64,000 nt of DNA from Eledone cirrhosa. Its lineage: Eukaryota. Of this stretch, positions 53 to 59,770 are shown one piece after another. Position 1 is the stretch's first letter, and every line of letters starts with the position of its first letter. The DNA is taken from positions 262,694,001 through 262,758,000 of the forward strand of contig OZ024743.1 in the NCBI GenBank assembly GCA_964016885.1, in the 5' to 3' direction. The notes under the pieces are model-generated. The model searched no databases and was not told the DNA's origin. It saw only the letters and a program-made list of their open reading frames with translations. A program made the translations under genes and the position numbers.

Positions 53-281
53 CAAAATAAAAATAAAGGGAAGGAAGGGGTATTCAAATAGTAGGGCATA
101 CGACAAATAAAAAACAAAGATATAAATGTTTATAGCTGATTAAGAGCACTCAACAGTTCATTGGAGCAAATAATCAATAAAAGTAAGCATTGAAAAACTC
201 TGTATGTAATTATGCATATACATACAAAACCATACATACACACACACGCACACACACAACCAACTACATACAAATATATAT

Positions 282-616: not shown

Positions 617-3001
617 TTATATACACATATACACACATATACACGACAACATACATACACGTAAAATTAATATCTAAAAATCAAAAGGGGGTGGGTATGT
701 AAAGAATAAGATAGAGAGTAGGTGGGAATAAGGAAAATAAATAACATAAGAAAAAGTTAAAAAATAAGAGGAGATAAGAGAGAAAAAGAAAATAAGGGTA
801 CAGAAAGTGAGTTCAGAGAGTAATAAAAGTCGTAGTAGATGTAAGGCGTAAAGAGCAAAGAAGAAGTTCAAGGAGGTTAAGTCATCGTAGTAAAGAAGAA
901 GTTCAAGGTGGTTGAGTCATCGTAGGAATGTCAATCCAGTTACAGAGCAGATGTGATTTCAGGTGAGGACAACATCTGAAGATCTCGATCTTGGAGTTAA
1001 GGCAAGTTGAAGTGGCTTTCAAATTCTGTAGAATTCTAAACTTTTCAGTGGTACACAAAGAACAATTCTTTGTGCCCCTTTGGTATTCCCTCGAATGGTC
1101 TAAAATAGACCAATCGATAGAGTACGGGATGTTATTATCTTTGAATTCTCACACCTTATTAGCGAGGGCCGTTGCTGTTCTTTTATCAGAGTGTTTAAAA
1201 GAAGCGACATGTGCATAAAACCTGGTTTTGAACCTGTCTTGAATCATACCAACATATCGTTCACTCCTGGCTGGCTGGTTGTTAATCAAAGGTGTTACTT
1301 TGGCCTCATATACAACGGATTTGGTGTTACATTTGCCCTGTAATGGGCATTCATCCGGATTCCTGCAACTGCATCCTGGATTTATTCTCGTACGATTAGA
1401 GTTGGTGATTTTAGACTTCATAGATGGGCAGCAAAAGTAACTAATTTTAACTACATTTCTATTAAATACCTTATAATATCGATCATTAGGGGGAAAATGC
1501 TTATCTAGGAGGTCAAGGAATTTCCTTCCTACATTAGTTTTGACAGTTAGAGAGAAGGGGGTGTAAACCAAATAATTTTCCTTTTCCTATTATTGTGATT
1601 AGTTTCAGGGGGAGGGGTAGGTAAATATGTAATCTGTTCTGTAAAGCCGCTGTTATTGAGGGCTTTATTATAATAAGGGGCAGCTTTATTAAAAATGTCT
1701 AGAGAAGAAGATAAAGTAGAAATCCTAAGACTAATATTGGGAATAAGATTTTTTTAAATTATAGGGGGATGGCAAGACTCTTTGTGTATATATCTTAGAT
1801 TCTCGTTAGGTTTATGATAAGGTTTTAAAAAGGCAGTAAGTAGATCAAGATAGTATATCGATATTATGGGTGTGGAGAAGGAATAATCCTACCAAGTCAC
1901 ACACATCTGCACTGTCATATGAACCCATTGCAACATCGAAAGAGTAGAGTTTTCCTAGCACGAAAAATAATGTCTTCTAATTTAGAAATATTAATGAAAG
2001 GTCTTGCAAAATCTAAGGCTTTATTTAATAAGGAAACAGTAATAGAGGGGTTAAATTCAACAATATCGAATTGGGTAAATCTACACTTATTTGTACATTA
2101 TTAAACCAAGAAATAACAGAGGGTGTATTTAACCATTGTGATAAGTCAGTCTTAGTTCTAATTTTGAAAATTATTTTTCTTAAGATTTTTTTACTTGCAA
2201 AGCCAACTTCGGATTTAGCCGGGTTAATCAATCTACAACTAGGTCGATTAGTAAAGTCTAATTTATGGTCTTTAAGGGTAATATAAGTTTTACGTTTAGC
2301 TAGGCTTTCAATCCGGTTGTCTATTTAAAAAAAAACTAGCTAGTTCTTTAGCTTCGTTATTAATAGTATTGTAGGTGTTATTGTTAGTTAATTGATATTT
2401 GTAGGTGATACTATTGGTTAAAAGTTGGTTATACAAAATACTATTAACTTCAAAGAGATTTTTAGTTTTATCGGAAAGAACAAAGGTGTTTGTAGAATTT
2501 TTAAGATAAGAGATATCGTTAGAAAGTTTAGTTTGAAAGTTATTGTTGTACTTACGAAATTTGATATCACTAATTAAATTAACAAGGTCTAATTCGAAGT
2601 TGGCCATGTCTATTTACGGGATTTTATGTCAAAACAATCATTTGTATCAGCACTGAATAGTCCATCGTAAACCATGCCTTCCATCTCATTCTTTTAACGA
2701 CTTGTTCAATTTTATCTATAAGCAGTTTGGTATAAGTTGTGTTGGAAGGAGTAGGTATATTTTTGATTGAATAATCCAAATCATAAAGGTCCATGGTGTA
2801 TGTTGGTTAAATTCCTGAAAACTGTAGAGTGCTCAACTTTTCGGGCTGGAAGGTGCCAATCATATATGTAATATAGAATATGCTTCAATCAATCCCGGTT
2901 GGAGCTGTATAAATGAGCTATAAACATTTATACCTTTTTTTTTTATTTGTCGTATGCCCTACTATTTGAATACCCCTTCCCTGATTTTATTTTTATTTTG
3001 T
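53..3001. repeat. ~85-bp inverted repeat pair (53-135 / 2917-3001) bracketing the first PLE
   Basis: ggggtattcaaatagtagggcatacgacaaataaa at ~77 is the reverse complement of tttatttgtcgtatgccctactatttgaatacccc at ~2942. Confidence 0.8.
950..2794 (-). mobile_element. Penelope-like retroelement, decayed RT + GIY-YIG ORF with internal deletions
   Basis: N-terminus MDLYDLDYSIKNIPTPS..KRMRWKAW from ATG at 2794; fragments SDKTKN (2308-2607) and LINPAKSEVG (2025-2231); GIY-YIG CSCRNPDECPLQGKC..VVY..YVG..FKTRFYAH (1149-1571); frameshifts and stops. Confidence 0.9.
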
Positions 3002-3142: not shown

Positions 3143-3213
<71 letters not shown>

Positions 3214-3252
3214 ATATTAATAAATGGAAACTATATTTATAAAACCATATTT

Positions 3253-3316
3253 ATTTTATTATATATATTTCAAGGGCAACCAAGGCAAATTATGGTGCAC
3301 TTTCATCAGATAAAAT
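3253..3316 (-). ncRNA. Type I hammerhead ribozyme
   Basis: Reverse complement of the 3469-3532 motif. Confidence 0.8.
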
Positions 3317-3468
3317 ACAGATTTGTTTTATAAATAAATATTGACATACCCGGAAAAAAAGACAACCTTAACGGTTGGAGATTCCTGGATAGGCTATCCA
3401 GGAATCTCCAACCGTTAAGGTTGTCTTATTTCCGGGTATGTCAATATTTATTTATAAAACAAATCTGT

Positions 3469-3532
3469 ATTTTATCTGATGAAAGTGCACCATAATTTGC
3501 CTTGGTTGCCCTTGAAATATATATAATAAAAT
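3469..3532 (+). ncRNA. Type I hammerhead ribozyme
   Basis: attttat CTGATGA aag..ctt GAAA tatata TA ataaaat; stem I attttat/ataaaat; palindromic minimal stem III. Confidence 0.8.
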
Positions 3533-3978
3533 AAATATGGTTTTATAAATATAGTTTCCATTTATTAATATATTGTGTATTTACTCCACTAATCTGTTGA
3601 GTGCTTTATATCAGTTATAAACATGTTTAAGCTTGTTGAATCCCAACAAATTAAATATAACCTCTGCATATATATATATATATATGTATATGTGTGTATG
3701 TCTGCATGTGTGTATGTATATATATGTATATGTGTGCGTGTATATATATATACATATATTTATATATATATATATATATATATATAAATATATGTATATG
3801 TATATATATATACACGCACACATATACATATATATACATACACACATGCATACATACACACATATACATATATATATATGTATATGTATATAGAGTATAA
3901 ATATTGAGTTTTCTCATCAGTTAATCACTACCTTGATTAAATCTTAACCATCTAACATGTCAGGGTATGTCATGTATC

Positions 3979-10033: not shown

Positions 10034-10206
10034 TTCAGTACCTCTGAAATATGTATAATAAAATGTAATTGATCACAAGAATATCTATTTTGTTAATATT
10101 TGAATTAATATTAATAACTCTGAAAAATATCCTCTGTAGAGTGCTTCCAATCTACTGTAAAACTCATTCTTTGATGTACTCATTGAATCTTGTTTAACTC
10201 TTTAAT
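10034..10206 (+). mobile_element. pLTR 3' fragment (half HHR + tail) fused in inverted orientation to the PLE 5' junction
   Basis: Nearly identical to 4012-4087, then continues ~100 nt to (TA)n. Confidence 0.75.
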
Positions 10207-11485: not shown

Positions 11486-11579
11486 ACCCCTTGAGAAGAT
11501 CGGCTATTTAAATACCAGGATAAATTTTCATTTAGTCCAGAATTAGCCGTCGAAACGGCTTGAGCTCAGCTGTCGGGGT
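11486..11579 (+). ncRNA. Hammerhead ribozyme, U3-A8 variant
   Basis: acccc TTGAGAA gatcggcta..tagccgtc GAAA cggcttgagctcagct GTC ggggt; stems I, II and III all pair. Confidence 0.8.
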
Positions 11580-11671
11580 CTTACTGGTTCCTATTACCCA
11601 CTCTACTACCTCAAGTATTGAGTACTTTGGTGCGTTATGGTCCACCTGGTTCCTTACCACATTTCCTTCGT

Positions 11672-11972: not shown

Positions 11973-12139
11973 ATGTGCGTGCGTGTGTACGTACTTATGC
12001 GTATGTGTGTATGTAACTTTATAGCTTTTATATTTATGTTTTTATCTTTAAGAAATGTTTATACTATATGTGTGTATGTGGTTGTATGCATTTATGTGTG
12101 CGTGTATATGTATTTGTATGTATATACTCTTTTGTGTCT

Positions 12140-13012
12140 GTGCTGTGGGCAAGTGCGACGACGCACTCGGAGAGGCTCTGGGAGTCAACGAAGTCGAACT
12201 AACCAGTCTGTACCGGAGGATTTTCGAGCCGGGGACGATGGATAATTTCCAAAAATCCCTCGCTTGGCAGTGCTACCGGGGGGCACTTCCGGTTCGAGAT
12301 AAACTCTACAGGCACGGAAGTGCTGCCAGACGGACCTGCCCGAGATGCGCGCAGAGCGACGAAACCGTTCTGCACGCACTCGTCCAGTGTCCGTGCATTA
12401 CTGACTTGTGGAGTTATGTTGAACAGCTGTTGTCGCGTGTAGAACGGATCCGGCTATCGGCTGATTCCATAGTGAAGATCGACCCGCCGCCTTCTTTTGG
12501 CCAGGAAGGGCAGGCAATTTTCCTCTGTCTGGTGGCAGTAGCGAAAGAGGTTGTATGGTGGACGAGGTTGAAAGGACTGAAGACAGACACTTTTCTCTTC
12601 GGCCAATCCCTCATCAACTGTTTCAAGTTTCACTTGGAAAGGAAGGTGAGGGTGGAGAGAGAAGTGCTGGTCCCCAGTACATTTGCTGAAAGGTGGGTGA
12701 ATGTGGCGAGAATGGCCCGTGTGAGTGGGCCTACTCTGGTCATGCGGCTGTAGGTAGGTAAATTTGAAGAGGAGAGGGGTGCCCTTCCAGGGTTCTCTCG
12801 AAGCGTCGGGTCGTTCAGGACTGGTGGGGTACCTGAGCGAACCCTAGGTGGTCATCCCCCCTATTGGGGAATTTTTTCTTGTAATTTTCTTGTTACTTTG
12901 TTATTGTTACTTTGTTTATTCATATTGTTTACTCGATTTTTCTGTAAAACCCCACTGTCCCAGTCTTTTGTATTGTCCCCTATATGTCGGCCCTTGTGGC
13001 CAATAAATGAAA
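12140..13012 (+). mobile_element. 3' end of an L1/Tx1-clade LINE (zf-RVT CCHC domain and 3' UTR)
   Basis: WQCYRGALPVRDKL..CPRC..ETVLHALVQC..W; aataaa at ~13002 followed by (att)n. Confidence 0.85.
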
Positions 13013-13559: not shown

Positions 13560-13743
13560 TTCAAATCCACTGTCAATAAAGACACCAGCATTTTTTCATT
13601 CTGATAAATGAAAGCAACTTTGGTTGCTTTCAAGAAACCACTGGTAAATGAAATAATTATCTTATGTTGTTTATTACATAACTAATAAGCTCTGTAATTT
13701 ACATAGAGCACTCTTTTTTCCTGAACCTTTCCGACGGAATTAC
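13560..13743 (+). mobile_element. PLE pLTR fragment with degenerate HHR (CUGAUAA core) and tail
   Basis: tttcatt CTGATAA atgaaagcaac tttg gttgctttcaa GAAAC cactg GTA aatgaaa; homologous to 16317-16515. Confidence 0.6.
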
Positions 13744-13799: not shown

Positions 13800-15410
13800 T
13801 AATAAAAGGAATTCCAACTTTGTCTGATTTACTCGTTTTATTTACAATCCTTTAAAATTATAATGGTAATAGAATGAAATAGTAGAATATTAAATGTTAA
13901 GGGTTAATTGAACAAGTACTTTCATGCTTTTGCAATCTTCAGGTCATATTCTTTGGTGACAGTCAAGTTTGCAATTTTCAACTGTAATGAGATGGGTAAA
14001 TTTGGTGCCTTATGAAATAGCATTTTCTAGTAATCATCACCATCAACATAACTTTTATTATTTATTATTGTTCATTTAGCTTGGGTTGGAATTTATAACT
14101 AAAATTCTTTTCTTTGATTTTTCTCTTGATTTCACTTGGGCTGTGTAATTTGTAGAATGGAAATATTATAAATATTTTCTGACTACATGTTGCTAGATGG
14201 TTACTCAGGGGTATCTGCCGGACATTTGGGTCTCTAATTTGCTGTCGGTGCACCCGTGCACGTTCCGATAGTGCATTTCCAGTTTGACCGACATATAGTT
14301 CTTCACAATTCGGGCATTTAATGCAGTAAATTAGATTTCTGCTTTTGCAGTTCATATTTGCATTTGGGAATATTTTCCCAGTTTTTGTGTTCATATATTG
14401 ACCGGTGTGTATGGATTGCCATGTGCCACATCGACTATCATTGCATTTAGATGATTGGTCTTTGTTGTTAAGGTCAAACTTTGCTTTTGTTAGTAATTGA
14501 TTCAAATTTTTCGGCTGTCTTTTACTAAGAGTCAAAGATCGGTCTGTAATTCATTACTTTGAGCAATGATCGGTAGGTTTACTTCGGCAGTGTTGAAGAT
14601 ATTCTGGTGACATGGGTTGTGTGTCATTATAAATGGTATGACCAGTTCTTGGTTTCTTCTTCCTTGGGTTGTCCTAAGTTGTTGTATAGGTATTTTTATA
14701 GCCCGCCGTATGCCATTTTCTATAAGTAGAGATGGGTATTTTTATTGAGCAAAAATTCTCTCAGTTCTGTTAGGCGTTGTTTGTTCCTGGTATTCGTATC
14801 TTCTACAATGGTACAAATTCTTCTGGTTAGGCAGTATGGGATGTTGCGTTTTGTATGAGGTGGATGGCATGACTTAAAATTCAGATATTGATGGGTGTCT
14901 GTTTATAATATATATCCATGGTAATGGTGGTGTCGTTTTTGATTACCATTATATCTAGGAATGGTAATTTGGTACTACTCATCTCTTTTGTGAATTGGAG
15001 AGATGGGTGAAGGTTATTCAGTAGGATATTGAACTCACCCAGAGTATCTAGAGATTCTGTCCAGATAATGAAACAGTCGTCAAGGTATCTCTTCCAAGAT
15101 TTTTCAATGTACTTTCTAAAGTCAGTGCTATATTTTTCCTCTATTTCTTGGTAGAGTTGTTGTTCTAAGTACCCCATTACAGAGTTCGCGTAAACGGGAG
15201 CAAACTTCGTTCCCATCGCTGTGCCTCTAATTTGGATGTAATTCTTTCCATTGAAGAAGAAAGTGTTGTTTTCCAGAATAAGTTTGACTGCGTCTAATAT
15301 AAATAGCGCTGTGAATCTGGTGGGAATCACTTCTCTATGTTTTTCGACCCAGTATTTAACCGCATTTATTCCTAAATCATGTGTAATGTTGGTGTAAAGG
15401 CTTACCACAT
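13800..15410 (-). mobile_element. 5'-truncated Penelope/Poseidon-type element (RT + GIY-YIG + pLTR)
   Basis: SLYTNI, GTAMGTKFAP, RYLDD, LPFLD; NCKSRNLIYCIKCPNC..YVGQT; frameshifts. Confidence 0.93.
13908..13947 (-). ncRNA. Minimal hammerhead ribozyme in the 3' pLTR
   Basis: revcomp atgac CTGAAGA ttgc aaaa gcat GAAA gtac TT gttcaat; palindromic AAGTACTT. Confidence 0.6.
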
Positions 15411-15445
15411 CAAAACGAAGTTTGCTCCCGTTTACGCGAACTCTG

Positions 15446-16277
15446 GAGGAGGAGGGCTACGTTTCATACAAGATGAGGAAAGGACAATTTCTGTCAAAAG
15501 CGATGCAAGAAGAGCGACTGAAGCACGCAAAGAAGCTGATCAACAAGTTGAAACACCCACTGGAGCCAGACATGCTGTGGTTTTTCTCCGACGAGAAAAA
15601 CTTCTGCCAAAACCAGAAGATCAACTCCCAGAACAACAGGTGGCTCGCTGTCTCATCCAAAGACGTGCCCAGAGTCATGCAGACAAAGTTTCCAGCGACA
15701 ACATTGGTCTTAGGTGTCGTCAGCAATCAAGGTGACGTCATGCCACCTCACTCTTCCCTGAGGGCCTCAAGCTGAACACCGATAGTTACATCCGCGTTCT
15801 GAGCGAGGTAGTAAAGCCCTGGATCGACCAGGTAGCTGCAGGTATGCCGTACGTGTGGCAGCAAGACTCAGCGCCCTGCCATACCAGCCGAAAGACCCAA
15901 GCCTGGTTGTCAGAGAACTTCGTCGACCTCACTTCACCTGACATCTGGTCCCCCAGCTCGCCTGACTGCAACCCGCTCAACTTCCTTGTGTGGGGCGCAT
16001 TAGAACGAGACACCAACAGATATAGCTGCAATACGAAAGATGATCTGAAGGCCAGGATCACAAGTGCCTCTAGGGCACTTGTGATCCTGTCGGGGGACAG
16101 TGACGAAGGCCTGTAGCCGGTTCCGAGGCCGCCTTGAGGCCGTCATCAAAGCCAATGGCGGGTTTATCGAGTAAGATCGAAAGAACAAGTCATGAAGACA
16201 AACTGACCCAAGTTTGCTAAATATACCTTAAAAAATAAAACTACTGTGTTACTTTTTCTAGACAGTAATCTTGCGAA
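15446..16277 (+). mobile_element. Tc1/mariner DD37D (maT-like) transposon, 3' half
   Basis: WFFSDEKNF; QQDSAPCH followed by 37 aa to SPDCNPL(N), third Asp mutated; ends ccgcaccatg|TA. Confidence 0.88.
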
Positions 16278-16316: not shown

Positions 16317-16511
16317 TTTCCGTAGGAAAGGTAAAGGAAAGGAGAGTGCTCTATGTATGCTACAGAGCTATTTAGTTATGTAATAAACAACATAAGACAA
16401 TTATTTCATTTACCAAAGGTTTCACGAAGACAGACGAGCTTGACACAGATGCCAGCCTTCGTGAAACCTTTGGTAAATGAAATAATTGTCTTATGTTGTT
16501 TATTACATAAC

Positions 16512-16518
<7 letters not shown>
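16317..16518. repeat. pLTR-derived inverted repeat (arms ~16369-16428 / 16456-16518) with tail
   Basis: tttaccaaaggtttcacgaag..27 nt..cttcgtgaaacctttggtaaa. Confidence 0.85.
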
Positions 16519-16573
<55 letters not shown>

Positions 16574-16818
16574 TATATATACAAATATAATTTCAGCGAG
16601 ATCGTATTTCGGCGGTGGCCAAAAACAAAGCGAAAGCAATCCTCGAGATATGTGGCAAGCGCTCAATGAACTAAAAGAAGACCAGAGCAATTAACATACG
16701 TTATAGAGGCCAGACAAAATGAAAACGGTGGTCGTGAGGCCATCAGCAACCGGAGCCAAAACAACGAAGCAAGCTGAACAGGTTAACAAAAGAATTTTGA
16801 AGTATAATTATATATATA

Positions 16819-16907: not shown

Positions 16908-17334
16908 ATTTAAGTATCAGCCGTACTAAGAGTGAGAAATGAAATTTCATTTTTTCCATTTATCGTTTTCGGTTCGCCCGGTCGACTAACGCACTCGATA
17001 TGCAAATTAGGCTGCTCAGCCGTTAATATGCATAAGGAAAGTATATACTTTCAAACGTTCAATCAACTGACATGAAGGTATACGGTGCTGATGACAGATA
17101 ATAACCTAGAAACTAGTTCATCGTTCCTTTGTCAATGTTGAACAAAAGGCAACGACGGTTGCCGAACACTGTACGGCTAATAATTCGGGCTGTTTGTTTA
17201 CAAACAAACCGAGCATTATAATAAATGTTCGGTAAACCCATACGTACATATATATATGTATGTATATACATACTACTGTACGTCTGTATACATATATATA
17301 TGTACTAAGAGTGAGAAATGAAATTTCATTTTTT

Positions 17335-17338
<4 letters not shown>
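16908..17338 (+). mobile_element. Non-coding HHR-bearing repeat unit (retrozyme-like family C)
   Basis: gtactaagagtgagaaatgaaatttc repeated at ~16923 and ~17302; homologous to 23590-24105; flanked by (TA)n. Confidence 0.8.
17082..17124 (+). ncRNA. Minimal hammerhead ribozyme
   Basis: acggtg CTGATGA cag..cta GAAA ctag TT catcgt. Confidence 0.75.
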
Positions 17339-17369
<31 letters not shown>

Positions 17370-18260: not shown

Positions 18261-18397
18261 ATAAGCAAATAGATATTTAATTTGTTGGTTATTCAACAAA
18301 TTTATTTATAACAGATTCGAAGCACTCTACAAAATTATTCTGGAGTATAATATCAATGATATTAATACATGGAAACTATCTTTATAAAACCATATTT

Positions 18398-18456
18398 ATT
18401 TTATTATATATATTTCAAGGGTACCAAAATTTTTGTACGCCCTCATCAGATAAAAT
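18398..18456 (-). ncRNA. Type I hammerhead ribozyme in pLTR 18262-18530
   Basis: revcomp attttat CTGATGA gggcgtac..gtaccctt GAAA tatata TA ataaaat. Confidence 0.8.
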
Positions 18457-19769: not shown

Positions 19770-20352
19770 GTGTTGGTGCACTGAAATAGCGATGTATATA
19801 TGAATGTACATATTGTATATTTAATAATATACTGCATGTTTATTTAAAAACTTTGAATTTAAGGTAGCGACTATAGTCACATACCTAGCTTCAGTAAAGA
19901 CAGGGGGAGCTAGGTATGTGACTATAGTCGCTACCTTAAATTCATAGGGAAAGGTCTTCAAAATGTTTTTAAATAAACATACAGTATATCATTAAATATA
20001 CAATACGTACATTCATATATACATCACTATTTCAGAGCACCAACACAAATTTCTAATTGTTGCTGGGCCGGCAACTGCTCTGTATGTTAATGAGTTTAAA
20101 CAGCTCATAAACATAATTGGTATTCTATAAGAATCCAGCTTCTACAGCTCACAGCAAAAACAGAGGCAATATATAGCCTTGATAAGCGCTAAACAACGAG
20201 AAACGATTGATTGAGGTTATTTCACTTTGTCTTCGCTGAAGCTAGGTATGTGACTAGAGTTGTTACCTTAAATTCATAGCAAAAGGCTTTTGAAATGTTT
20301 TTAAATAAACATACAGTATATTATTAAATATACAATATGTACATTCATATAT
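19770..20352. repeat. Inverted plus partial-tandem ~325-bp non-coding unit
   Basis: agctaggtatgtgacta.agt.g.taccttaaattca at ~19908 and ~20240, inverted at ~19854-19890. Confidence 0.8.
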
Positions 20353-20367
20353 ATATATATATACATA

Positions 20368-22955
20368 GTTTTGCTAGATGACGAGACAGAGGCACAGTTC
20401 ACCATAGCTAGAAATAAGATTAGACAAATAGTAGACCGGTATACTAAGAGACAAAGCAGACCAGAGGTCCAACAACTTGGGAGGGAACCTGTAGAAGGCT
20501 TGGTTAGCCTCAAGCAGCGCACAAGGGATGGTGAGGTAGTATGTCTACCCACGGATAAGTCTGGTAGGATGTCAATAGACAGCATGCCGAACTACATCAA
20601 GACTATGCAACCCCACATCAACAACACGAGCGAAATTGCACACCAAATACATGAGGGGAGAGAGAAAATCCTCAACGATCACATGATGATGTGGACCGAC
20701 ATCCTAAAGCCAAGCAGACGCACTGCCAACAACTTCCAGGCGTCTAACAATGGCATACCACCCTTGTATGGGCTCCGCAAAGACTATTAGACAGTTGACG
20801 ACCCGACGACAGGACCACCAACAAGACCTGTATGCGGAGCCAATATCGCTAGCAACTACAGGATCTCCTACTTCCTCTCAATGGTTATACGCCCCATAGT
20901 CAAGATGTCCCCAGATGTATGTGACAGTACAGAGGACCACCTCAGCAGAATCAGTGAGTGCAACAAAAACAAAAACCTATCCAACTGCATAATAGGCAGT
21001 TTGGATGTGGTATCACTGTACCCATCCATTAACATTGATTTTGCTGTGGAAAAATGTGTGGAGATGATCATTGAGAGTGAGGTAGAGTTCTGCAACGTCA
21101 ACACAGACGAACTGGGTCTCCTATTTAGACTTACCTATGACACTGACTACCTAGACAGCCATGACCTTAAACGTTTCTACCCCAGTAGACACATAAGAGG
21201 TAGACCCCTCACCAAAACTTCAATGGCAAAAAAGACTCCCATGGGAAGGTGGATTGGGTGGACCAAAGCTATACGGACCCCCCAAAACAATGATCAGGTA
21301 AGAAAAATGGTCGCACATGCAATAGGGGCTAGTATCAAAAACTACCCTAAAGGGCCATATATTCAAATTTAATGAGAAGATCTACACCCAAAATGAGGGA
21401 GCAGCCATTGGCGTCAGCATAGCTGGTGACGTTGCCAACCTTTTTATGGTATGGTGGGGAAGGAGACTTAAAGATCTCCTTGATGAGAGCTCCAGAGACC
21501 TCATCATGTACTCTCGTTACGTAGACGATATCAATATAGTTATAAGAACATCCCCACAAGAGAGCACTAACAAGTTTGATTTAGAACGTAGCACAATGGA
21601 AAGCATCCAGCAGATATCTAATTCCATACACCAGAGTATAACTGTAACTATCGACTACCCTTCCAAACACCCTAACAATAGACTACTTGTATTAGACATG
21701 GAACTCTGGATTAACACTATAGACGAGAGAGCCCAAATTCTCCACTCACACTACGCTAAACCCATGGCCTCCAAATACTTGAATCTCAAAAACTCAGCAA
21801 TGTCCAGTAGTGTTAAGTTTAATATTCTGATCGCAGACTTGGTACGAGTGATGAAGAACGTGTCCCGCATGTGCGACCCAACAGAAATGGAAAGACACAT
21901 CCAACACTTCATCAACCGCATGCAGTTCTCTGGCTACAACCAAAGAGACAGAATCAGAGTATACGAAGGAGCCACGGAGAAGTATAAGACCCTCATAGAA
22001 CTGGACATGAAAGGAATTTTCCCATTATACAGGAGCAAATCATGGAATAGCTTAGAAAGGACTAAACATAAGATAGGGAAAGCCACCTCATGGTACGACA
22101 ACCAGAGATATCAGAGTGTCATGTTTGTGGACGCTACCCCTGGAGGGAAATTAGCTAACCAATGTAGAAAAGCGCTGAGAAAGACCCACTTAAAGATTAA
22201 GGTGGTAGAAAAGCCAGGAACCACCATAAAATCCCTGATCAGCAAAACCTACCCTTTTAAGAAAACCCACTGTACTAATAGGAAATGTATTATATGTAAA
22301 GTTAACCCCCAGATAAACTGTAAAACTAGAAACGTAGTCTATAGCATAAGATGTACAGAGGGTACTTGCAGAAACATGACAACAACATACATAGGCGAGA
22401 CAGCTCGTAGCATAGGTGAAAGGATAGATCAACACTGGGGAGAATTAAAAGGACGAAAAAACGGTTCAGTACTATACGAACATGACGGTAACATAGACAA
22501 CATAGAAATTAAAATAATATCTAAACATAGAAATGACCCAGCAGATAGGCAAATCAGAGAGGCCAGCGAAATAAAACTTAGACGGCCAAAGCTAAACAGA
22601 AAAAATGAATGAAATAACAACAACACCCAAACAAACAATACTGACCTAAGAGAAGTATAAATAAATAAATAAATAAATACATACACAAGAACAATAACAA
22701 CAAACACATATAAACACACACTAGTAAACTAAGACAGAATACAATAACCAATACACACTCACCCAAACGCGAACACACATCAAACACTATACACACACGC
22801 AAACGCATGCACAGAGAAGAAGACAAAAATAAATAAATAAATAAATAAACCGATTAAATAAAGATGGCGTAGACATACAATACAACAAGAGGAAACACAA
22901 TAGCACCACTGACGATGTTGCAGATGTGCAACGAAAGAACTTTGTTAGACTATAT
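20368..22955 (+). mobile_element. 5'-truncated PLE, probably Naiad-like clade (RT + GIY-YIG + pLTR)
   Basis: TDKSG, PPLYGLRKD, PTRPVCGA, SLDVVSLYPSI, GAAIG, RYVDD, MFVDATPGGKLA, IKVVEKPG, CKTRNVVY..YIGETAR; stop at 20788-20790 and frameshift near 21340. Confidence 0.9.
22900..22953 (+). ncRNA. Probable hammerhead ribozyme at the 3' end of the Naiad-like PLE
   Basis: CTGACGA t gttgca gatg tgcaac GAAA gaac TT; stem I imperfect. Confidence 0.55.
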
Positions 22956-23136
22956 ATATGTGTTTGTGTCTATATTATATCTGTATTTTTGACCGTTGGT
23001 CAGTCAATGGTAAACATTGAAGACCGAATAAATTAAATTAACTGATATAAAAGATACAGAAGCGAAAACCAACCAAACAGTGAGTGTGTTCTGTTATTAA
23101 TTCTGGCAATATTATTACACAAATATGACCCTCCCC

Positions 23137-23274
<138 letters not shown>

Positions 23275-23277
23275 AAT

Positions 23278-24107
23278 GTATACGTACATACATATATGTA
23301 TACAGACGTACAGTAGTATGTATATATATATATATACATGCACGCATATATATATATGTACGTATGGATTCACCGAACATTTATTATAATGCTCGGTGTG
23401 TTTGTAAACAAACATCCCGAATTAAGCCATACAGTGTTTAGCAACCATCGTTGCTCATTTATTCAACACTGACAAAGGAACGCTGTATTAGTTTCAAGCT
23501 TATTAGCTATCATCAGCAACGTATATCTTCCTGCCAGATGGCTGAACGTCTGAAAGTATATACTTTCCTTATGCATATTAACGGCTGTATACATATATGT
23601 ATGTACGTATACATACTTATATTTAAGTAACAGCCGTACTAAGAGTGAGAAATGAAATTTCGTTTCATTTTTTTCCGTTTATCGTTTTCGGTACCCCGGC
23701 CGATTAACTCACTCGATATGCAAATTAGGCTGTTCAGCCGTTAATATGCATAAGGAAAGTATATACTTTCAGACATTCAACCATCTGGCAGGAAGGTATA
23801 CGTTGCTGACGATAGCTAATAAGCTTGAAACTAGTACAGCGTTCCTTTGTCAGTGTTGAACAAATGAGCAACGATGGTTGCTAGACACTGTACGGCTTAA
23901 TTCGGGATGTTAGTTTACAAACACACCGAGCATTATAATAAATGTTCGGTGAATCCATAAGTACATATATATATGTGTGCATATATGTATATATACATAC
24001 TACTGTACGTCTGTATACATATATGTATGCACGTATACATACTTATATTTAAGTAACAGCCGTACTAAGAGTGAGAAATGAAATTTCGTTTCATTTTTTC
24101 CGTTTAT
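23278..24107. mobile_element. Retrozyme-like family C: inverted copy (23278-23587) plus ~1.2 tandem units (23588-24107)
   Basis: ~426-bp period (ttaagtaacagccgtactaagag at ~23623 and ~24049); HHRs at 23480-23522 (-) and 23800-23842 (+). Confidence 0.85.
23800..23842 (+). ncRNA. Minimal hammerhead ribozyme
   Basis: acgttg CTGACGA tagct aata agctt GAAA ctag TA cagcgt. Confidence 0.78.
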
Positions 24108-25738: not shown

Positions 25739-25922
25739 TATAACGAAGGAATTGTGGTAAGGAACCAGATGGACCATAACACACCAAAGTACTCAATACT
25801 TAGGGTAGTAGAGTGGGTAATAGGAATAAAGTATGACCCCGATGGCAGAGCTCAAGCCATTTCGACGGCTATTTAATAGCCGTCGAAACGGCTTGAGCTC
25901 TGCCGTCGGGGTCATACTTGTT

Positions 25923-25927
<5 letters not shown>
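25739..25927. repeat. Short fold-back palindrome of a family-B-related pLTR end
   Basis: Centre cggctatttaatagccg; long arm reaches ataacgaagg, short arm ends ttcctat(TA)n. Confidence 0.88.
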
Positions 25928-27539: not shown

Positions 27540-30484
27540 CTGTAAAATGGAGGGGTAGAGAGGGCCCTTGAGTCTAATAAGACATCCTCTCTAGTGCTGG
27601 TGGCATAAATAAAAGCACCCAGTCCATGCTGTAAAGTGGCACTGGTGTTAGGAAGGGCATCCAACCAGTGTATCAATGCCAAAACGCTTATCAGCACAGC
27701 AACAAATAGATAGGAACAATAACAAAATATGAAGATGTCGCATCTCAGAGTTGCAACACTTAATGTTGGCACTCTCAGAGGTAGATCTGCTGAAATAGTG
27801 GAGATGCTGGAGAGAAGGCATGTGGATGTGTGCTGCGTGCAAGAGGTGAGATGGAGAGGTACCTCTGCGAGACTAGTCGCAGGCAAACATCTTAGCTATA
27901 AGCTTTTCTGGGTAGGTAAGGATGATGGGTTAGGGGGGGGGTAGGCATTTTCCTGGTTGAGAGATGGATCAATAAGACAATAGAGGTAGTTCGAGTTAGT
28001 AATCGAATAATTAAGCTTAGATTAGTTGTAGGCAGGAGACTACTGACAATCATCTCTGCCTATGCTCTCCAAGCAGGCCTAGGCAAAGATGAGAAAGACT
28101 GCTTTTACAAACAACCACAATGACAGAGGATGGAGACATCGTTATGCTAGCAGGGGACTTCAATGGTCATGTTCGACAGCTCCAGGATGGTTACACTGGG
28201 GTACATGGTGGGCACGGTTATGGCTCAAGAAATGAATGAGTGGGACTTCTTGAATTTTGTGATGCAAGTACACTGACTATTTGCAACACACACTTCCAGA
28301 AACCTGCCAACCACCTAATAACCTACAAATCTGGCGAGCACATAAGCCAGATTGACTTCTTACTAGTTAGGCAGCGGGACAGGCAGATAGTGTCTAATAC
28401 CAAGGCATACCCTGTGGAAGAATGTACCCCACAGCATAGGTTAGTCGTTAGTGATATCTCAGTAAGCAAGAGATGGAATGAGACATACAGGAAGGTGTGG
28501 AGAAGAAAGGTCTGGAAGCTAAAAGACCTCTCACTAAAATACAAATTTAGGAAAGCCCTTCAAGATGTGTATGACGAAAAAGAAGATGATTTAGAGACGT
28601 ATGACATAGATAATAACTGGAATTTCTTACGTGACAACTTACTGCAGGCTACTGATGAAACTTGTGGCTGGAGAAGAGCTCCAACCAGACAGAGAGTGAC
28701 CTGGTGGTGGAACAGCACAGTAGATAAGGCCATTAGAGACAAAAACTAGCATGGAAGGCTTGGAAAAAGGGTGGGAGTAGGGAAGAATATACAGCTGCTA
28801 AGAGAGAAGCTAGACGTCAGGTGTACTTAGCACGCAGGGAGGCTGAGAATAGGAGGGTTGCCAATGTTCTGCGACAGGAAGATCAGAGGCGTGCGGTGTT
28901 CCACAATGCAAGGCAGCGTGTCAATGCAAATCAGGATGTTGTTGGAGGTGTCATACTCAAAGACTGGTGCAGCAGTATTCTCATAAATTTCTACAAAGGT
29001 AAAGGGGATGCTCTGGAGAGGAGCAATTATAGGGGTATAAAACTGATGGATCAGGTTATGAAAGTGGCAGAAAGGATATTAGAACAACTAATTAGAGAAA
29101 GGGTCAAACTAGATGAGATGCAGTTTGGTTTTGTTCCTGGGAATAGTACAACAGATGCCTTCTTTTTGGTGAGACAATTGCAAGAGAGGTTCTTAGAGTA
29201 AAATAAGCCACAATACTTAGCCTTTGTTGACCTAGAGAAGGTCTTTGATAGGGTACCCCGATTTGTCATCTGGTGGTCCCTAAGGAAACTAGGTGTTGAG
29301 GAATGGCCTGTGAGGACAGTGCAAACTTTGTACAGAGGTAGTGTCAGTAAAGTCAGGGTAGTTTAGTAAGGAATTCCAGATACAAGTAGGAGTACATCAA
29401 GGTTCGGTCCTCAGCCCGCTCTTGTTCATTATAGTCCTCCAAGCCATAACAGAGGAGTTTAAGACTGGCTGTCCATGGGAACTTCTCTATGCTGACGATC
29501 TGGTTCTTATAGCAGAATCAGTAGAGGAGCTAGAGAATAAATTCTGGCTATGGAAACAGCAGTTGGAAGCAAGAGGACTGAGAGTGAACCTAGCTAAGAC
29601 AAAAGTGTTGATGAGTAGAAAAGAGGACAAAACTCTGATTCCATCAGGGAAATGGCCATGTTCGATATGCAGAAAAGGAACTGGCATAAATTCTATAAAA
29701 TGCACACAATGCAGATCCTGGGTACACAAGAGATGTAGCGGGATTAGCAGGCAAACTAACAGGTAGGGAGAAATATCTATGCAGTAGATGTACAGGGAAA
29801 TTAGACAGTAGAAGTCGCATTGATAGACACATTTTTCAAATGCAGGCGGGTGCTATAGAAGTGGTGGATAGCTTCCGGTACCTAGGAGATCAGATTAGCA
29901 TGGGAGGTGGATGTTCCGAGGCCATAGTATGTAGAATAAGGACGGGTTGGAAGAAGTTTAGGGAGCTGCTTCGTCTGCTGATGAAGAAGGGTTTCTCCCT
30001 GCGTACAAAAGGCCGGTTATATGATACCTGTATGAGGAGCGCGATGTTGCATGGTAGTGAGACATGGGCAGCAACTGCAGAGGATATGCGACGGCTGGAG
30101 AGAAATGAGGCAAGCATGCTCCATTGGATGTGCAGTGTCAATGTGCGTGAACGACCCAGCATGAATGTGTTGAGAGAGAAACTGTGTCTGAGAGGGATAG
30201 AATGTAGTGTGCGGGAGAGGAGACTGAGGTGGTATAGACATGTGATGCACATGGAGGATGACCGATGGGTGAAGAAGTGCCAGAAAATGCCAGTTGAAGG
30301 AAGACGTGGTAGAGGTAGACCACGAAAAACATGGGCGGAGGTGGTGAGAACAGACCTCAGATCGCTGAAGCTCACGGTGGAGATGACGAAGGACCGTGAC
30401 AAGTGGAGAGATGCTGTGCTGAATAAGACCCGTCCCACCCTTGCAAGCAGGGAAGAGCAGACATAAAATGATGATGATGATGAT
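27540..30484 (+). mobile_element. Near full-length decayed RTE-clade LINE (APE + RT + PHD-like finger)
   Basis: LRVATLNVGTL..CCVQEVRW, AGDFNGHV, SQIDFLL, QHRLVV, NYRGIKL, QFGFVPG, LLYADDLVL, RGRGRPRKTW; (tga)n tail; internal deletion near 28948. Confidence 0.95.
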
Positions 30485-32790: not shown

Positions 32791-33417
32791 TCCCTGTGAG
32801 TTTCTCCATAACACATCTAAACCCAATGTGGAACATAAATTTAAATTGGCCCTGCCGTTTGGGATAACTTTGGTTTCACTCTCTCACAATACCCAGGTAA
32901 CAGCACAACTGTGATGATATAAAAAGCAGTTCAGCCAGAGTCATAAAATTCAACAGTTTGCCTGGATATGTTCTACCTTGCAGCAAAATAGCTGCATGTT
33001 ACTCAATTAAGTGCTCTCTTCTGAACAATGGAGTGCTACTAGTAAAGTGTTTGTATACAACCTACTGCACACTCGCACATGTATTTCCATGTGAGTGTCT
33101 GCCTGTCAGTATGTGTGATGTTCTTGTGTATATAGTCTATATAAATGATGGTGCATGTGTTTGTGTCTATTTTGTTTATGTGTGTAGATTGGAGCCAGAC
33201 TGTATTTGTGTATATATCACAACATGTGTAACTTTGTATATCAGTATATAAACATACTGTATATCTTTAGATATATGAAATTCACATACATATATGTATA
33301 CAGCAATACCAAAGCTAAATTTTAATATATATATATGTATATATGTACATATATATATGGAGTGTTTGCAATGCATAAATCAGAGTAGCACTTGATGCAT
33401 AGTGCGAAGTAGGGTGA

Positions 33418-47019: not shown

Positions 47020-47180
47020 GCTGGAACATAACACACCAGAGTACTCAATACTTAGGGTTGTAGAGTGGGTAATAGGAAAAATGTGAGGACCCCGATGGCT
47101 GAGCTCTGGCTGTTTCGACAGCTAGATCCATTTGGATCTAGTTGTCAAAACAGCCATCGGGATCCTGACTCTTTTCCTAT
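47020..47180. repeat. Diverged fold-back palindrome of a family-B-related pLTR end
   Basis: gacagctagatcca-tt-tggatctagttgtc; short arm ends ttcctat(TA)n. Confidence 0.75.
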
Positions 47181-47500: not shown

Positions 47501-47578
<78 letters not shown>

Positions 47579-47793
47579 GTTAAAAATGTACATCCACATA
47601 TGTATACTGAAATACTAGTATGCATATGAATACACACACGTATACATATGTAGATGTACCGAGTTTTTCACTGGTCACTTTACTGTGAGTGTCCAGCTAT
47701 TCTGTATGTAAACACACAGACAAACCGGTTTTTAGAGTCATACTGGTTTTTGAGGAAACACCTTTCCTCTATTCTCCAGAAAGCCAGACAAGG

Positions 47794-47838
47794 AATATTG
47801 AACTAGTTTCGATGTTGTTACATCTCATCAGCAATATT
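47794..47838 (-). ncRNA. Minimal hammerhead ribozyme
   Basis: revcomp aatattg CTGATGA gatgt aaca acatc GAAA ctag TT caatatt. Confidence 0.85.
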
Positions 47839-48248
47839 TACCTATCTTCCGGCCTTTCTAGAGAATCGTAAAAGCACGTATCGTTATATGCTTTTTCTAT
47901 GAAAATTAGTAGTGGGCAGACTAATTTGCATAGAGCGTGAGTACGTACCGGTTCAACGGAGACGATAAAAACAAATAACGAAACGAAATTAAATTTCGTT
48001 TCGTTTGTAACTCACTTTTGTATGACTGACGCTTAAACAATTAAGTTAAAAATGTACATCCACATATGTATACTGAAATACTAGTATGCATATGAATACA
48101 CACACGTATACATATGTAGATGTACCGAGTTTTTCACTGGTCACTTTACTGCTCTATGCAAATTAGTCTGCCCACTACTAATTTTCATAGAAAAAGCATA
48201 TAACGATATGTGCTTTTACGATTCTCTAGAAAGGCCGGAAGATAGGTA

Positions 48249-48293
48249 AATATTGCTGATGAGATATAACAACATCGAAACTAGTTCAATATT
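48249..48293 (+). ncRNA. Minimal hammerhead ribozyme
   Basis: aatattg CTGATGA gatat aaca acatc GAAA ctag TT caatatt. Confidence 0.8.
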
Positions 48294-48587
48294 CCTAGTC
48301 TGGCTTTCTGGAGAATAGAGGAAAGGTGTTTCCTCAAAAACCAGTATGACTCTAAAAACCGGTTTGTCTGTGTGTTTACATACAGAATAGCTGGACACTA
48401 ACAGTAAAGTGACCAGTGAAAAACTCGGTACATCTACATATGTATACGTGTGTGTATTCATATGCATACTAGTATTTCAGTATACATATGTGGATGTACA
48501 TTTTTAACTTCATTGTTTAAGCGTCAGTCATACAAAAGTGAGTTACAAACGAAACGAAATTTAATTTCGTTTCGTTATTTGTTTTTA

Positions 48588-53552
<4,965 letters not shown>

Positions 53553-53554
<2 letters not shown>

Positions 53555-55220
53555 AACGAAGGAAATGTAGTAAGGAACTAGGTGGACCATAAGTGCAACG
53601 CGAGGACGGACACCTACAACAAAGCTTATATACGATTAACCGCATGTGACTTCAAGACCCGGCTATACCAACACAGACATACCCTCCGAAACCCGGCCCG
53701 GTGTCACGCCACTACACTTTCGGGCCACATATGGGACCTCAAGGACAACATCACCTATGATCTCATTTGGAGATTACTGTCCAGAGCCAACTCATACACG
53801 GGAGGACGCCGTCCGTGCAATTTATGCTCGGAGGAAACTTTACAAATGCTGTTTTCGACGGACCAACTCCTAAACAAGAAAGATGAACTGGTTACTGCAT
53901 GTAAACAGAGATTGCGTAGGACTTACCCCGCCCTCAAACCCCATAATGACCCGGGGGGTAGACTAGGGCTATAACACCCCACTTGCCGATTTTGTAATGG
54001 GTAACCCCTGCTTGCCAAGGGAGACGTAAGATCTTCTTTTATATTCTTTTATCGCTTCCTCTATATTTCCTTCTTCCCTCCATCCCTCCCCAGTCCTTCT
54101 ACCCCAGTTCTTTTTCTTTGTCGGCATCTTTTTCTCGCCCACCCGAGGCAGCCCCTCTGGCCCTTGTAGCCTCAGTACCCCCACCCCTCCCCTATTCTAT
54201 GATAGATTTGGCGGACTCCGCTTTTTATAGCAGTTGTGTTAGACCTCGGATACTACCCCTCTTATCCGACCGCTGCACCTTTTTTCCGTGCCTTCTATAT
54301 TTCTTAGTGGCATCTTTGCTTTAATTTCTCGTTTATTCAGTATTTCTTTCTTCTCTTTTCTTTTGGGCGGGGGGGGGGGGATTCTGAATTAATTTTCCGT
54401 ATTTTACTTTTACTTCGTACAAACTTTCATGTAGCTTGTATAAGAACTTTTGTAGCGTGGCGGTACCCTTAGAGTTAGCATTAGTATATTTTTTTCGGGA
54501 CTCTGAATTATTATTTCGTACTAGTTTACTTTTCTGCACTGGGTGGTTGCTGGCCTTGTGCCTGGGGTAGAAACCTTTATTAATTATTTCGTCGTAGTTT
54601 CTTTAGTATTTTGCCCCCCCCCCCCTTGTTGACCCGTCACCGTATGATATACGTACTTATACCTCTTAAAAGGGTCCCTTCTTATACCGTTCCACCTAGT
54701 TTATTTATTTATTATTATTATTTTTAAATTTATTTATTTATTTATTTATTTATTTATCTATTTATTTATTTCTTTAGCCTAGCAATAGCGAGAGACTTAG
54801 GTCGTAGAAATTGCTTATATTTTTCTTTACATTTATTCGCTTTTTATCACTCTCAGTATTTTTTTTTAATATATTTTTACCCTTCATTGTTCTACTTACC
54901 GTTTTGACTTCCTCCCCCTCCCTAGTATCTTCTTTGACCTCACGCCCAGCTGTAGCCGGCACTACCAACGCATGAATGGGTCTACTCCACCCCTCCCCTT
55001 TTTCTCCTACTGGCAGGTTTAGCTACCCCTTCCCCCACTAATTTGCCATCACAGAATTACTACTAACTTGTGACCAATCTTTGTGACAATCACTTTGACC
55101 ATATATGGAATTACCCCTTGAGAAGCTCGGCTATTTAAATACCAGGATAAATTTTCATTTAGTCCAGAATTAGCCGTCGAAACGGCTTGAGCTCAGCCGT
55201 CGGGGTCTTCCTGGTCCCTA
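53553..55220 (+). mobile_element. PLE family B, diverged copy: 40-nt inverted tail + GIY-YIG end + pLTR with U3-A8 HHR (55113-55206)
   Basis: AYIRLTACDFKTRLYQH..CNLCSEE; pLTR homologous to 58511-59743. Confidence 0.92.

Positions 55221-56408: not shown

Positions 56409-59770
<3,362 letters not shown>

Follow-up and report, generated by a model that had tools for sequence, protein, structure and literature searches.

Penelope-like elements and hairpins in the window

The window, by which is meant the whole 64,000-nt stretch of Eledone cirrhosa DNA analysed, is AT-rich and crowded with fragments of Penelope-like elements (PLEs), in an animal genome of 3.0 Gb. The initial annotation had reported six small hairpins and ten sister copies stopping at (TA)n; all six hairpins were recovered at their positions, and each of the ten copies ends at (TA)n where it had been placed. 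Five further copies, at 16345, 16658, 25788, 47040 and 56606, and a hairpin of a second type at 2828-2905 were absent from that annotation. The features are listed below, where hairpin 1 and hairpin 2 are the stem-loops that follow the first and the second of two copy-end positions (site 1 and site 2) and HHR denotes a hammerhead.

145..167, minus strand: orphan hairpin in the 3' UTR of a family D element
2828..2905, minus strand: hairpin 2 of family D, which has a long loop and precedes the start codon (ATG at 2794) of a decayed Hydra ORF by 33 nt
3209..3514, minus strand: inverted partner of the family A copy, with a site 1 end 6-7 nt short of hairpin 1
3469..3532, plus strand: type I hammerhead of family A, core at 3476-3517, about 57 nt upstream of hairpin 1
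3577..3667, plus strand: family A tail, the interval from site 1 to site 2, holding hairpin 1 and the 5' arm of the linker helix
3583..3605, plus strand: hairpin 1 of Hydra family A, with ACUC stem, UU bulge and GAGU-GCU
10117..10145, plus strand: hairpin 1 of family B, in a copy truncated within its HHR, with a site 2 end near 10205
11487..11578, plus strand: predicted hammerhead variant of family C, with U3-A8 replacing C3-G8 and position 7 free
11600..11626, plus strand: hairpin 1 of family C, with the copy end at site 2 (11671) and an inverted partner at site 1 (10325)
13689..13712, plus strand: hairpin 1 of family D, with G-C at the base and a UA bulge
16345..16368, minus strand: hairpin 1 of a family D copy, whose inverted partner has a site 1 end near 16514-16518
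16658..16688, minus strand: hairpin 1 of a G-type non-coding mini-element
18321..18346, minus strand: hairpin 1 of family E, a relative of A
18412-18449: HHR of family E, upstream of hairpin 1 at 18321
25788..25814, minus strand: hairpin 1 of a family C copy, partner end at 25927
47040..47066, minus strand: hairpin 1 of a family C relative, partner end at 47180
56606..56632, minus strand: hairpin 1 of a family C copy, partner end at 59743
57835..58746, minus strand: C-terminal part of a family C Hydra ORF, with CxCX5C linker, GIY-YIG-type endonuclease, CxxC and CxH

The carriers had been described as otherwise dissimilar, which is true of families A, C, J, H, N and D, unalignable outside the hairpin cores (14 of their 15 pairs fall in the shuffle range), but not of the hairpins at 3583, 10117 and 18321, which belong to related subfamilies. 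The hairpin at 145-167 does not mark a copy end, being an orphan before which no copy stops. It represents an E-like tail and hairpin captured, on the minus strand, in a family D 3' UTR at least 600 nt upstream of the HHR, and the same capture is present in the family D 3' UTR at loci L142, L149, L156, L162, L165, L168 and L283. Candidates dropped from the analysis, as they have neither the bulged stem nor repeat-bounded ends, are the GCTCCCACAGGAGCACT family (5 hits) and a match at 33001-33037.

Other repeats in the window include a fragment at 14065-15456 (minus strand) with Pfam RVT_1 and GIY-YIG hits, presumably part of a further GIY-YIG PLE, as well as sequences which, from their motifs, are taken to be a Tc1/mariner-like transposase fragment (15398-16116, plus), an RTE-like LINE fragment (28240-30466, plus) and an L1/Tx1-like LINE end (12052-12753, plus). 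A fold-back repeat family with inverted copies (19774-20356) adjoins a non-Hydra PLE, and 48700-53500 is an irregular (TA)n tract of about 4.8 kb, nearly pure and containing an assembly gap.

Hammerheads

All hairpins but that at 145-167 had been placed just downstream of an HHR. A canonical core is indeed found upstream of 3583 and 18321, whereas the copy at 10117 is truncated inside its HHR, the core near 13689 is mutated and the sequence near 11600 lacks CUGAnGA. The predicted family C hammerhead retains U3 and A8 in 25 of 27 copies, and because of this core the family C hammerheads would be missed by CUGAnGA searches; more of them lie at 55100-55210, 56650-56750 and 59630-59730 and at L363:4707-4800. 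Families A, B, D, E, H, I and J carry a canonical pLTR hammerhead, family C carries the U3-A8 variant, and none was found in the mini-elements K and G.

Carrier elements

On the evidence of their protein motifs, the ORFs behind the hairpins are those of Hydra-clade PLEs. They contain the RWK-type N-terminal motif (as RLRWR, RLRWT or RMRWK) and SDKT, that is DKT in place of DKG (P0001, P0002 and others). Inspection by eye of P0001 and P0002 revealed the CxCX5C linker (CNCPDRSIC and CNCRIKNKC, respectively), CNLC in both, CKH in the former and CLH in the latter, these last motifs flanking the conserved E and N, and no CCHH in either. Copy ends adjoin simple repeats, in line with the (TA)n insertion of this clade. 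Full-length ORFs comprise 717 and 800 aa, some of them in near-identical tandem arrays, and the ORF proteins of families C and J are 37% identical. No Pfam hit was obtained for pieces of the Hydra ORFs and no sequence-level match for the Hydra protein among solved structures; the best structural matches of a predicted monomer model are telomerase RTs, with TERT on top.

Intact 3.5-kb family C units with open 717-aa ORFs are arranged head to tail at L361 and L363 (G000:C1:91475000-91484500 and 437199000-437208500), adjacent units being 99.97% identical, and represent a candidate active PLE. A long tandem array of the 620-nt G-type mini-element is present at G000:C1:150084000-150124000 (L171-L200), and where G and K are dispersed, their copies form partial tandems in direct orientation and end at site 2 only.

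Fold, enrichment and covariation of the hairpin

At the base of each hairpin is a 4-bp RCUC/GAGY stem, above which, past a 3'-side bulge of 2 nt, comes an upper stem that covaries; RCU follows as a tail. The loop varies freely in length from 2 to about 80 nt. The paired pattern occurs 12 times in the window against 0-6 times in 20 block shuffles. In 794 kb of genome sampled blind to content, the pattern of the initial annotation was found 63 times (17-33 in 3 block shuffles), in at least a dozen repeat families. A refined, bulged descriptor was found 41 times against 0-1 in 10 shuffles of the 794 kb sample from which it was itself derived, and 8 times against 0-1 in 91 kb of held-out loci.

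Units for the structural comparison were collected from ORF starts recognised by the N-terminal protein motif, chosen so that the hairpin played no part in selection. This gave 129 starts in 35 clusters, 7 from Eledone cirrhosa and 28 from environmental or MAG-filed contigs. Two hairpin cores precede the ATG in 29 of the 35 families, and 3 of the remaining 6 have less than 100 nt of upstream sequence. Covariation was assessed in 26 units with 52 hairpins, 3 of the 29 clusters having been dropped as no 5' arm was found for hairpin 1.

Five pairing registers were compared, and the upper stem resumes past the 2-nt bulge: in this register 50 of the 52 hairpins retain an intact first upper pair (C-G in 32, U-A in 17), two of the 52 being misassigned, against 1-11 in the other registers. 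Pairs 1-4 score 134, compared with 89 ± 5.5 in 5000 partner shuffles, none of which scored as high. RNAalifold returned the same fold from an ungapped alignment of 20 sequences, with 92.9% of cells paired and none of 500 shuffles as high, in a test that takes no account of relatedness among the sequences. This alignment was drawn from 31 equal-length matches, leaving out 6 near-duplicates of family D and 5 with a CAC arm; with hairpins of unequal length, MAFFT misaligned the 5' arm. The stem therefore covaries by both the partner shuffles and RNAalifold, whereas an absence of covariation had been named in the initial annotation as speaking against the motif. Single hairpins are thermodynamically marginal (z from +0.3 to -2.8), and the support for the hairpin comes from comparison. 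At basal position 3, a compensatory A-U pair is present in two loci from outside this genome. The AGYRCT core is a degenerate palindrome in which all four central YR steps are present, and an antisense GAGYRCT count (34 of 61 against 49 of 61) was for that reason rejected as an invalid control.

A second hairpin and a linker helix

The idea of a single tail hairpin has to be replaced by that of a pair, one after each of two start sites. Read-through copies of families A, I, D and K have a second, similar hairpin about 6-9 nt past site 2, followed by the ATG; in family A the tail stops 6-9 nt before hairpin 2, as is visible in read-through copies L003, L014 and L338. Between hairpin 2 and the ATG lie 18-62 nt. 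For families C and H, the second hairpin was predicted beforehand and sought with a query consisting only of the tail end and CTC, yielding 469 matches for C and 37 for H; among the matches listed, the full second hairpin was present in 12 of 14 loci and 17 of 20 loci, respectively. These C and H read-through loci mostly run on into an ORF start, and one of them has a mutated core; the listed loci that lack the full second hairpin are (TC)n tracts. A generic two-core pattern gave 755 matches, against 195 for the reversed pattern.

The 3' flanks of hairpins 1 and 2 pair with each other, more strongly in cognate (on average -10.6 kcal/mol) than in non-cognate combinations (-5.8 kcal/mol), and the cognate partner ranks first or second in 17 of 26 units. 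Single-sequence folds, which are weak, recovered the twin topology for A, C and 4 of 5 further modules, the fifth folding otherwise, and hairpin 2 is modified in minis K and G. The twin module thus comprises two bulged stem-loops and a covarying long-range helix, located between the hammerhead and the start codon. RNA runs gave one with a word share of 0.09 and one 200-nt contig, which lies outside the module.

Copy ends and inverted insertions

Copies end at two places: site 1 directly precedes hairpin 1, and site 2 lies 31-76 nt beyond it; the spacing of the sites ranges from 57 to 93 nt and more, and the ends keep a fixed distance from the hairpins. Mapping against nine family references, families E and N being left out, gave 259 distinct copy ends, of which 60 precede hairpin 1 and 123 hairpin 2 by 0-14 nt, 22 are read-through and 54 lie elsewhere, many of the last being spurious, from a rearranged family I reference, or +1 calls from TA microhomology. 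In the blind sample, 85 of 94 copy ends adjoin simple repeats, and 77 of these 85 lie 0-14 nt ahead of one hairpin or the other, most often at 3-6 nt. In other organisms, 16 of 27 self-alignments of the 3' against the 5' copy stop 2-12 nt before a hairpin, and several of the other 11 are coding-region alignments. Far from being scattered, a result that the initial annotation had set against its own proposal, the ends cluster before the hairpins in both data sets. Both ends could be assigned in 32 inverted insertions, and in every one a site 1 end is combined with a site 2 end.

The 8-nt leader before the hairpins contains TA in 88% of 50 cases, compared with 46-48% of control windows. Two DNA runs from the same organism contain loose (TA)n ends at both family C sites, and depth drops roughly 100-fold past family C site 2; as the runs may be from the source sample, these ends are not independent evidence.

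Minis K and G possess hairpin 1, yet none of 48 K copies and no G copy ends there; both end at site 2 only and are almost always inserted without an inverted partner. Together with the orphan at 145-167, these copies indicate that the hairpin alone is not sufficient. A (TC)n stutter at site 1 was considered as a trace of reiterative synthesis and rejected, its frequency (5 of 9 in family I, 1 of 9 in family H) being indistinguishable from background (29 of 73).

Distribution among PLEs

In the published Hydra consensus file, inspection by eye located the hairpin in Hydra-2_Amil and Hydra-2_Ajap, both hairpins in Hydra-1_Ajap and variants in Hydra-1_Crog and Hydra-1_Obim, with no hairpin at the end of Hydra-1_Amil; the carriers include coral and sea cucumber sequences. 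The 7 exact 9-mer hits in the Craig supplement comprise 4 in the small Hydra file and 3 in Naiad/Chlamys, away from ends. No relatives were found among viral contigs. Hammerhead-bearing Hydra-clade PLEs on bacterial-MAG contigs (L459-L469) are most likely eukaryotic contamination.

The non-Hydra coding PLE of the window (20305-23136, plus strand; L470-L499) has an HHR at 22909-22936 and, about 200 nt downstream of it, two AC-rich ends about 42 nt apart; GAGYRCT was found at the ends of none of its 27 copies. The HHR mini-elements of the window likewise have two ends from which the motif is absent. They form two related non-coding families (16910-17342, 23272-24107 and 47576-48588) whose ends are separated by about 55-75 nt and in which a long-range helix, GAGUGAG/CUCACUC, is predicted across site 2. 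RCUC/GAGYRCU is absent from them, and the arrangement is possibly an analogous module of another PLE lineage. Since these other PLE families have two ends without the motif, it is specific to the Hydra clade: it crosses families, as the initial annotation had supposed, but only within that clade. The two-site rule is general and already known, and the motif is the Hydra version of it.

Proposed mechanism and alternatives

The data establish the twin structure and its conservation, the UA-rich leaders, the two end positions and the rule of one end of each kind per inverted insertion. Because copies stop before either hairpin, one each per inverted insertion, the pair likely sets the start of copying. 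The initial annotation had proposed a cross-family docking signal for RT and endonuclease. Part of this survives, as the ends are not scattered, the stem covaries and the motif crosses families, but the element is a pair, it is confined to the Hydra clade and its docking partner would be the RT rather than the endonuclease.

Taken together, these features suggest that the module is probably a two-site RT-positioning element, in which the hairpins are bound in sense RNA, (TA)n ends prime at the leaders and the cDNAs join into a tailed inverted insertion. The twin module would fold in a transcript that continues past the end of one unit into its neighbour, and the RT would bind a hairpin in the element RNA and start copying a few bases upstream. 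The GIY-YIG domain would cut both strands of a (TA)n tract, after which each 3' DNA end would anneal to the UA leader before one hairpin and prime cDNA synthesis. Head-to-head joining of the two cDNAs, each through its 5'-truncated end, would then leave an inverted insertion of which only one end has the inter-site tail. As hairpin 2 would never be copied at the 3' end, only tandem copies could template again.

A more tentative extension, for which the odds are somewhat below even, is that this pseudo-twofold RNA, with its hairpins at opposite ends of the linker helix, takes up a telomerase-like RT as a homodimer, each hairpin receiving one subunit, and that a single RNA thereby primes the two ends of a double-strand cut, aligning them on its UA leaders as telomerase does. 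If correct, twofold loading would constitute a mode of retrotransposition in which the second strand is not primed separately. It would account at once for the tails of PLEs, their inverted copies and their dependence on tandem copies, and would offer a portable loading module of 100-150 nt for programmable insertion.

The main alternative, unlikely by comparison, is that the hairpins act in DNA, as cDNA or duplex, with the GIY-YIG endonuclease trimming longer-than-unit cDNA in the TA-rich leaders so that the ends are cuts. Such trimming would accord with Craig 2021 (PMC8557442), which attributes the tail to EN-mediated resolution, with the requirement of the D. virilis tail for EN to recognise plasmid DNA, as reported in PMC11167929, and with the palindromic core. 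The strand test is also compatible with it, single mismatches being G-U in 15 cases and A-C in 14, with linker-helix energies equal on both strands; basal-stem probabilities lean towards the sense strand, both stems exceeding 0.5 in 14 of the 25 units on that strand and in 7 on the other. However, PAc tail ends coincide with RT starts mapped in vitro (PMC11167929), and the fixed 2-nt bulge, variable loops and long-range helix call for a single strand rather than a duplex.

A role of the hairpins in translation or RNA handling, whether in 5' UTR autoregulation or hammerhead control, is quite improbable. It would account for the position of hairpin 2 shortly before the ATG, the ends then lying nearby through TA-rich patches that anneal (TA)n primers, as the leaders are rich in TA, and the PAc protein does assist its own hammerhead (PMC11167929). 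Yet TA-rich patches are common in these AT-rich UTRs and ends occur at two places only, their distance from the hairpins is fixed while that between the sites varies, the motif is kept in non-coding minis, and in family I the site 1 end falls at a base not matching TA. That the motif is an inherited sequence relic, or arose by tandem duplication where the RT starts, with no selection on its structure, is very improbable: every carrier descends from one clade and end-segment tandem duplications are common in these loci (L339), but the core is nearly invariant while the flanks are unalignable between families, the upper stem and linker helix covary and basal position 3 is compensated.

Comparison with known systems

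The twin module is a real, clade-wide and apparently undescribed cis element. Five module-bearing loci gave no match at the Rfam gathering score, and an Rfam scan of the window returned only microsatellite noise and two weak hammerhead hits. Full-text searches of the literature, whose coverage lay outside subscription journals, Repbase notes and some supplementary figures, found no twin-hairpin motif, and none appears in the available portions of PMC10085705, PMC2377424, PMC4209133 and bioRxiv 10.64898/2026.07.22.740005. As a short signature, the motif can also be used to recognise Hydra elements and the non-coding elements that ride on them.

The protein of PAc, the Poseidon element of Anolis, is predicted to be dimeric; it cleaves both strands of the DNA and extends each, synthesis beginning at the two internal positions of the RNA that bound the tail and depending on RNA 3' of the start (PMC11167929). 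The Hydra elements resemble it in having two discrete sites that bound a tail, in an AT-rich target and, presumably, in the extension of both strands and a need for RNA 3' of the start, their ends being known here from genomic copies. The PAc study, as far as its text was available, left the start-site signal unidentified. Inspection by eye of the RNA template printed there (PMC11167929) located an AUCUC/GAGAU stem 6 nt after the +111-118 start, closing at +163. Lying inside the minimal 172 nt, this stem is a possible Poseidon analogue.

The elements share with the Hydra clade of C-terminal EN+ PLEs, as described in PMC8557442, the protein signatures, (TA)n targets, pLTR hammerhead and a tail at one end of inverted insertions. 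They depart from it in the length of the tails (57-110 nt here, against 30-40) and in the non-canonical U3-A8 hammerhead core of family C. The word "hairpin" has no occurrence in the main text of that paper (PMC8557442).

The 3' stem-loop of the LINE UnaL2 and its SINE partner, which is required for retrotransposition of UnaL2 (PMC1636434), is likewise a bulged cis-acting hairpin in coding and non-coding partners. It is single, upstream of a 3'-terminal start and copied, whereas the Hydra hairpins are two, each downstream of an internal start.

PLEs are the closest mobile relatives of telomerase, and a near-invariant, covarying twin at fixed spacing, together with young, intact elements, makes their choice of two internal starts and the origin of their tailed inverted insertions directly testable. 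In telomerase RNA, an internal template is bounded by neighbouring RNA structure, and a short primer-template alignment takes place on a simple repeat. The template-positioning elements of telomerase RNA share this internal-template logic with the Hydra module, with the difference that a PLE copies kilobases once and telomerase a short repeat many times.
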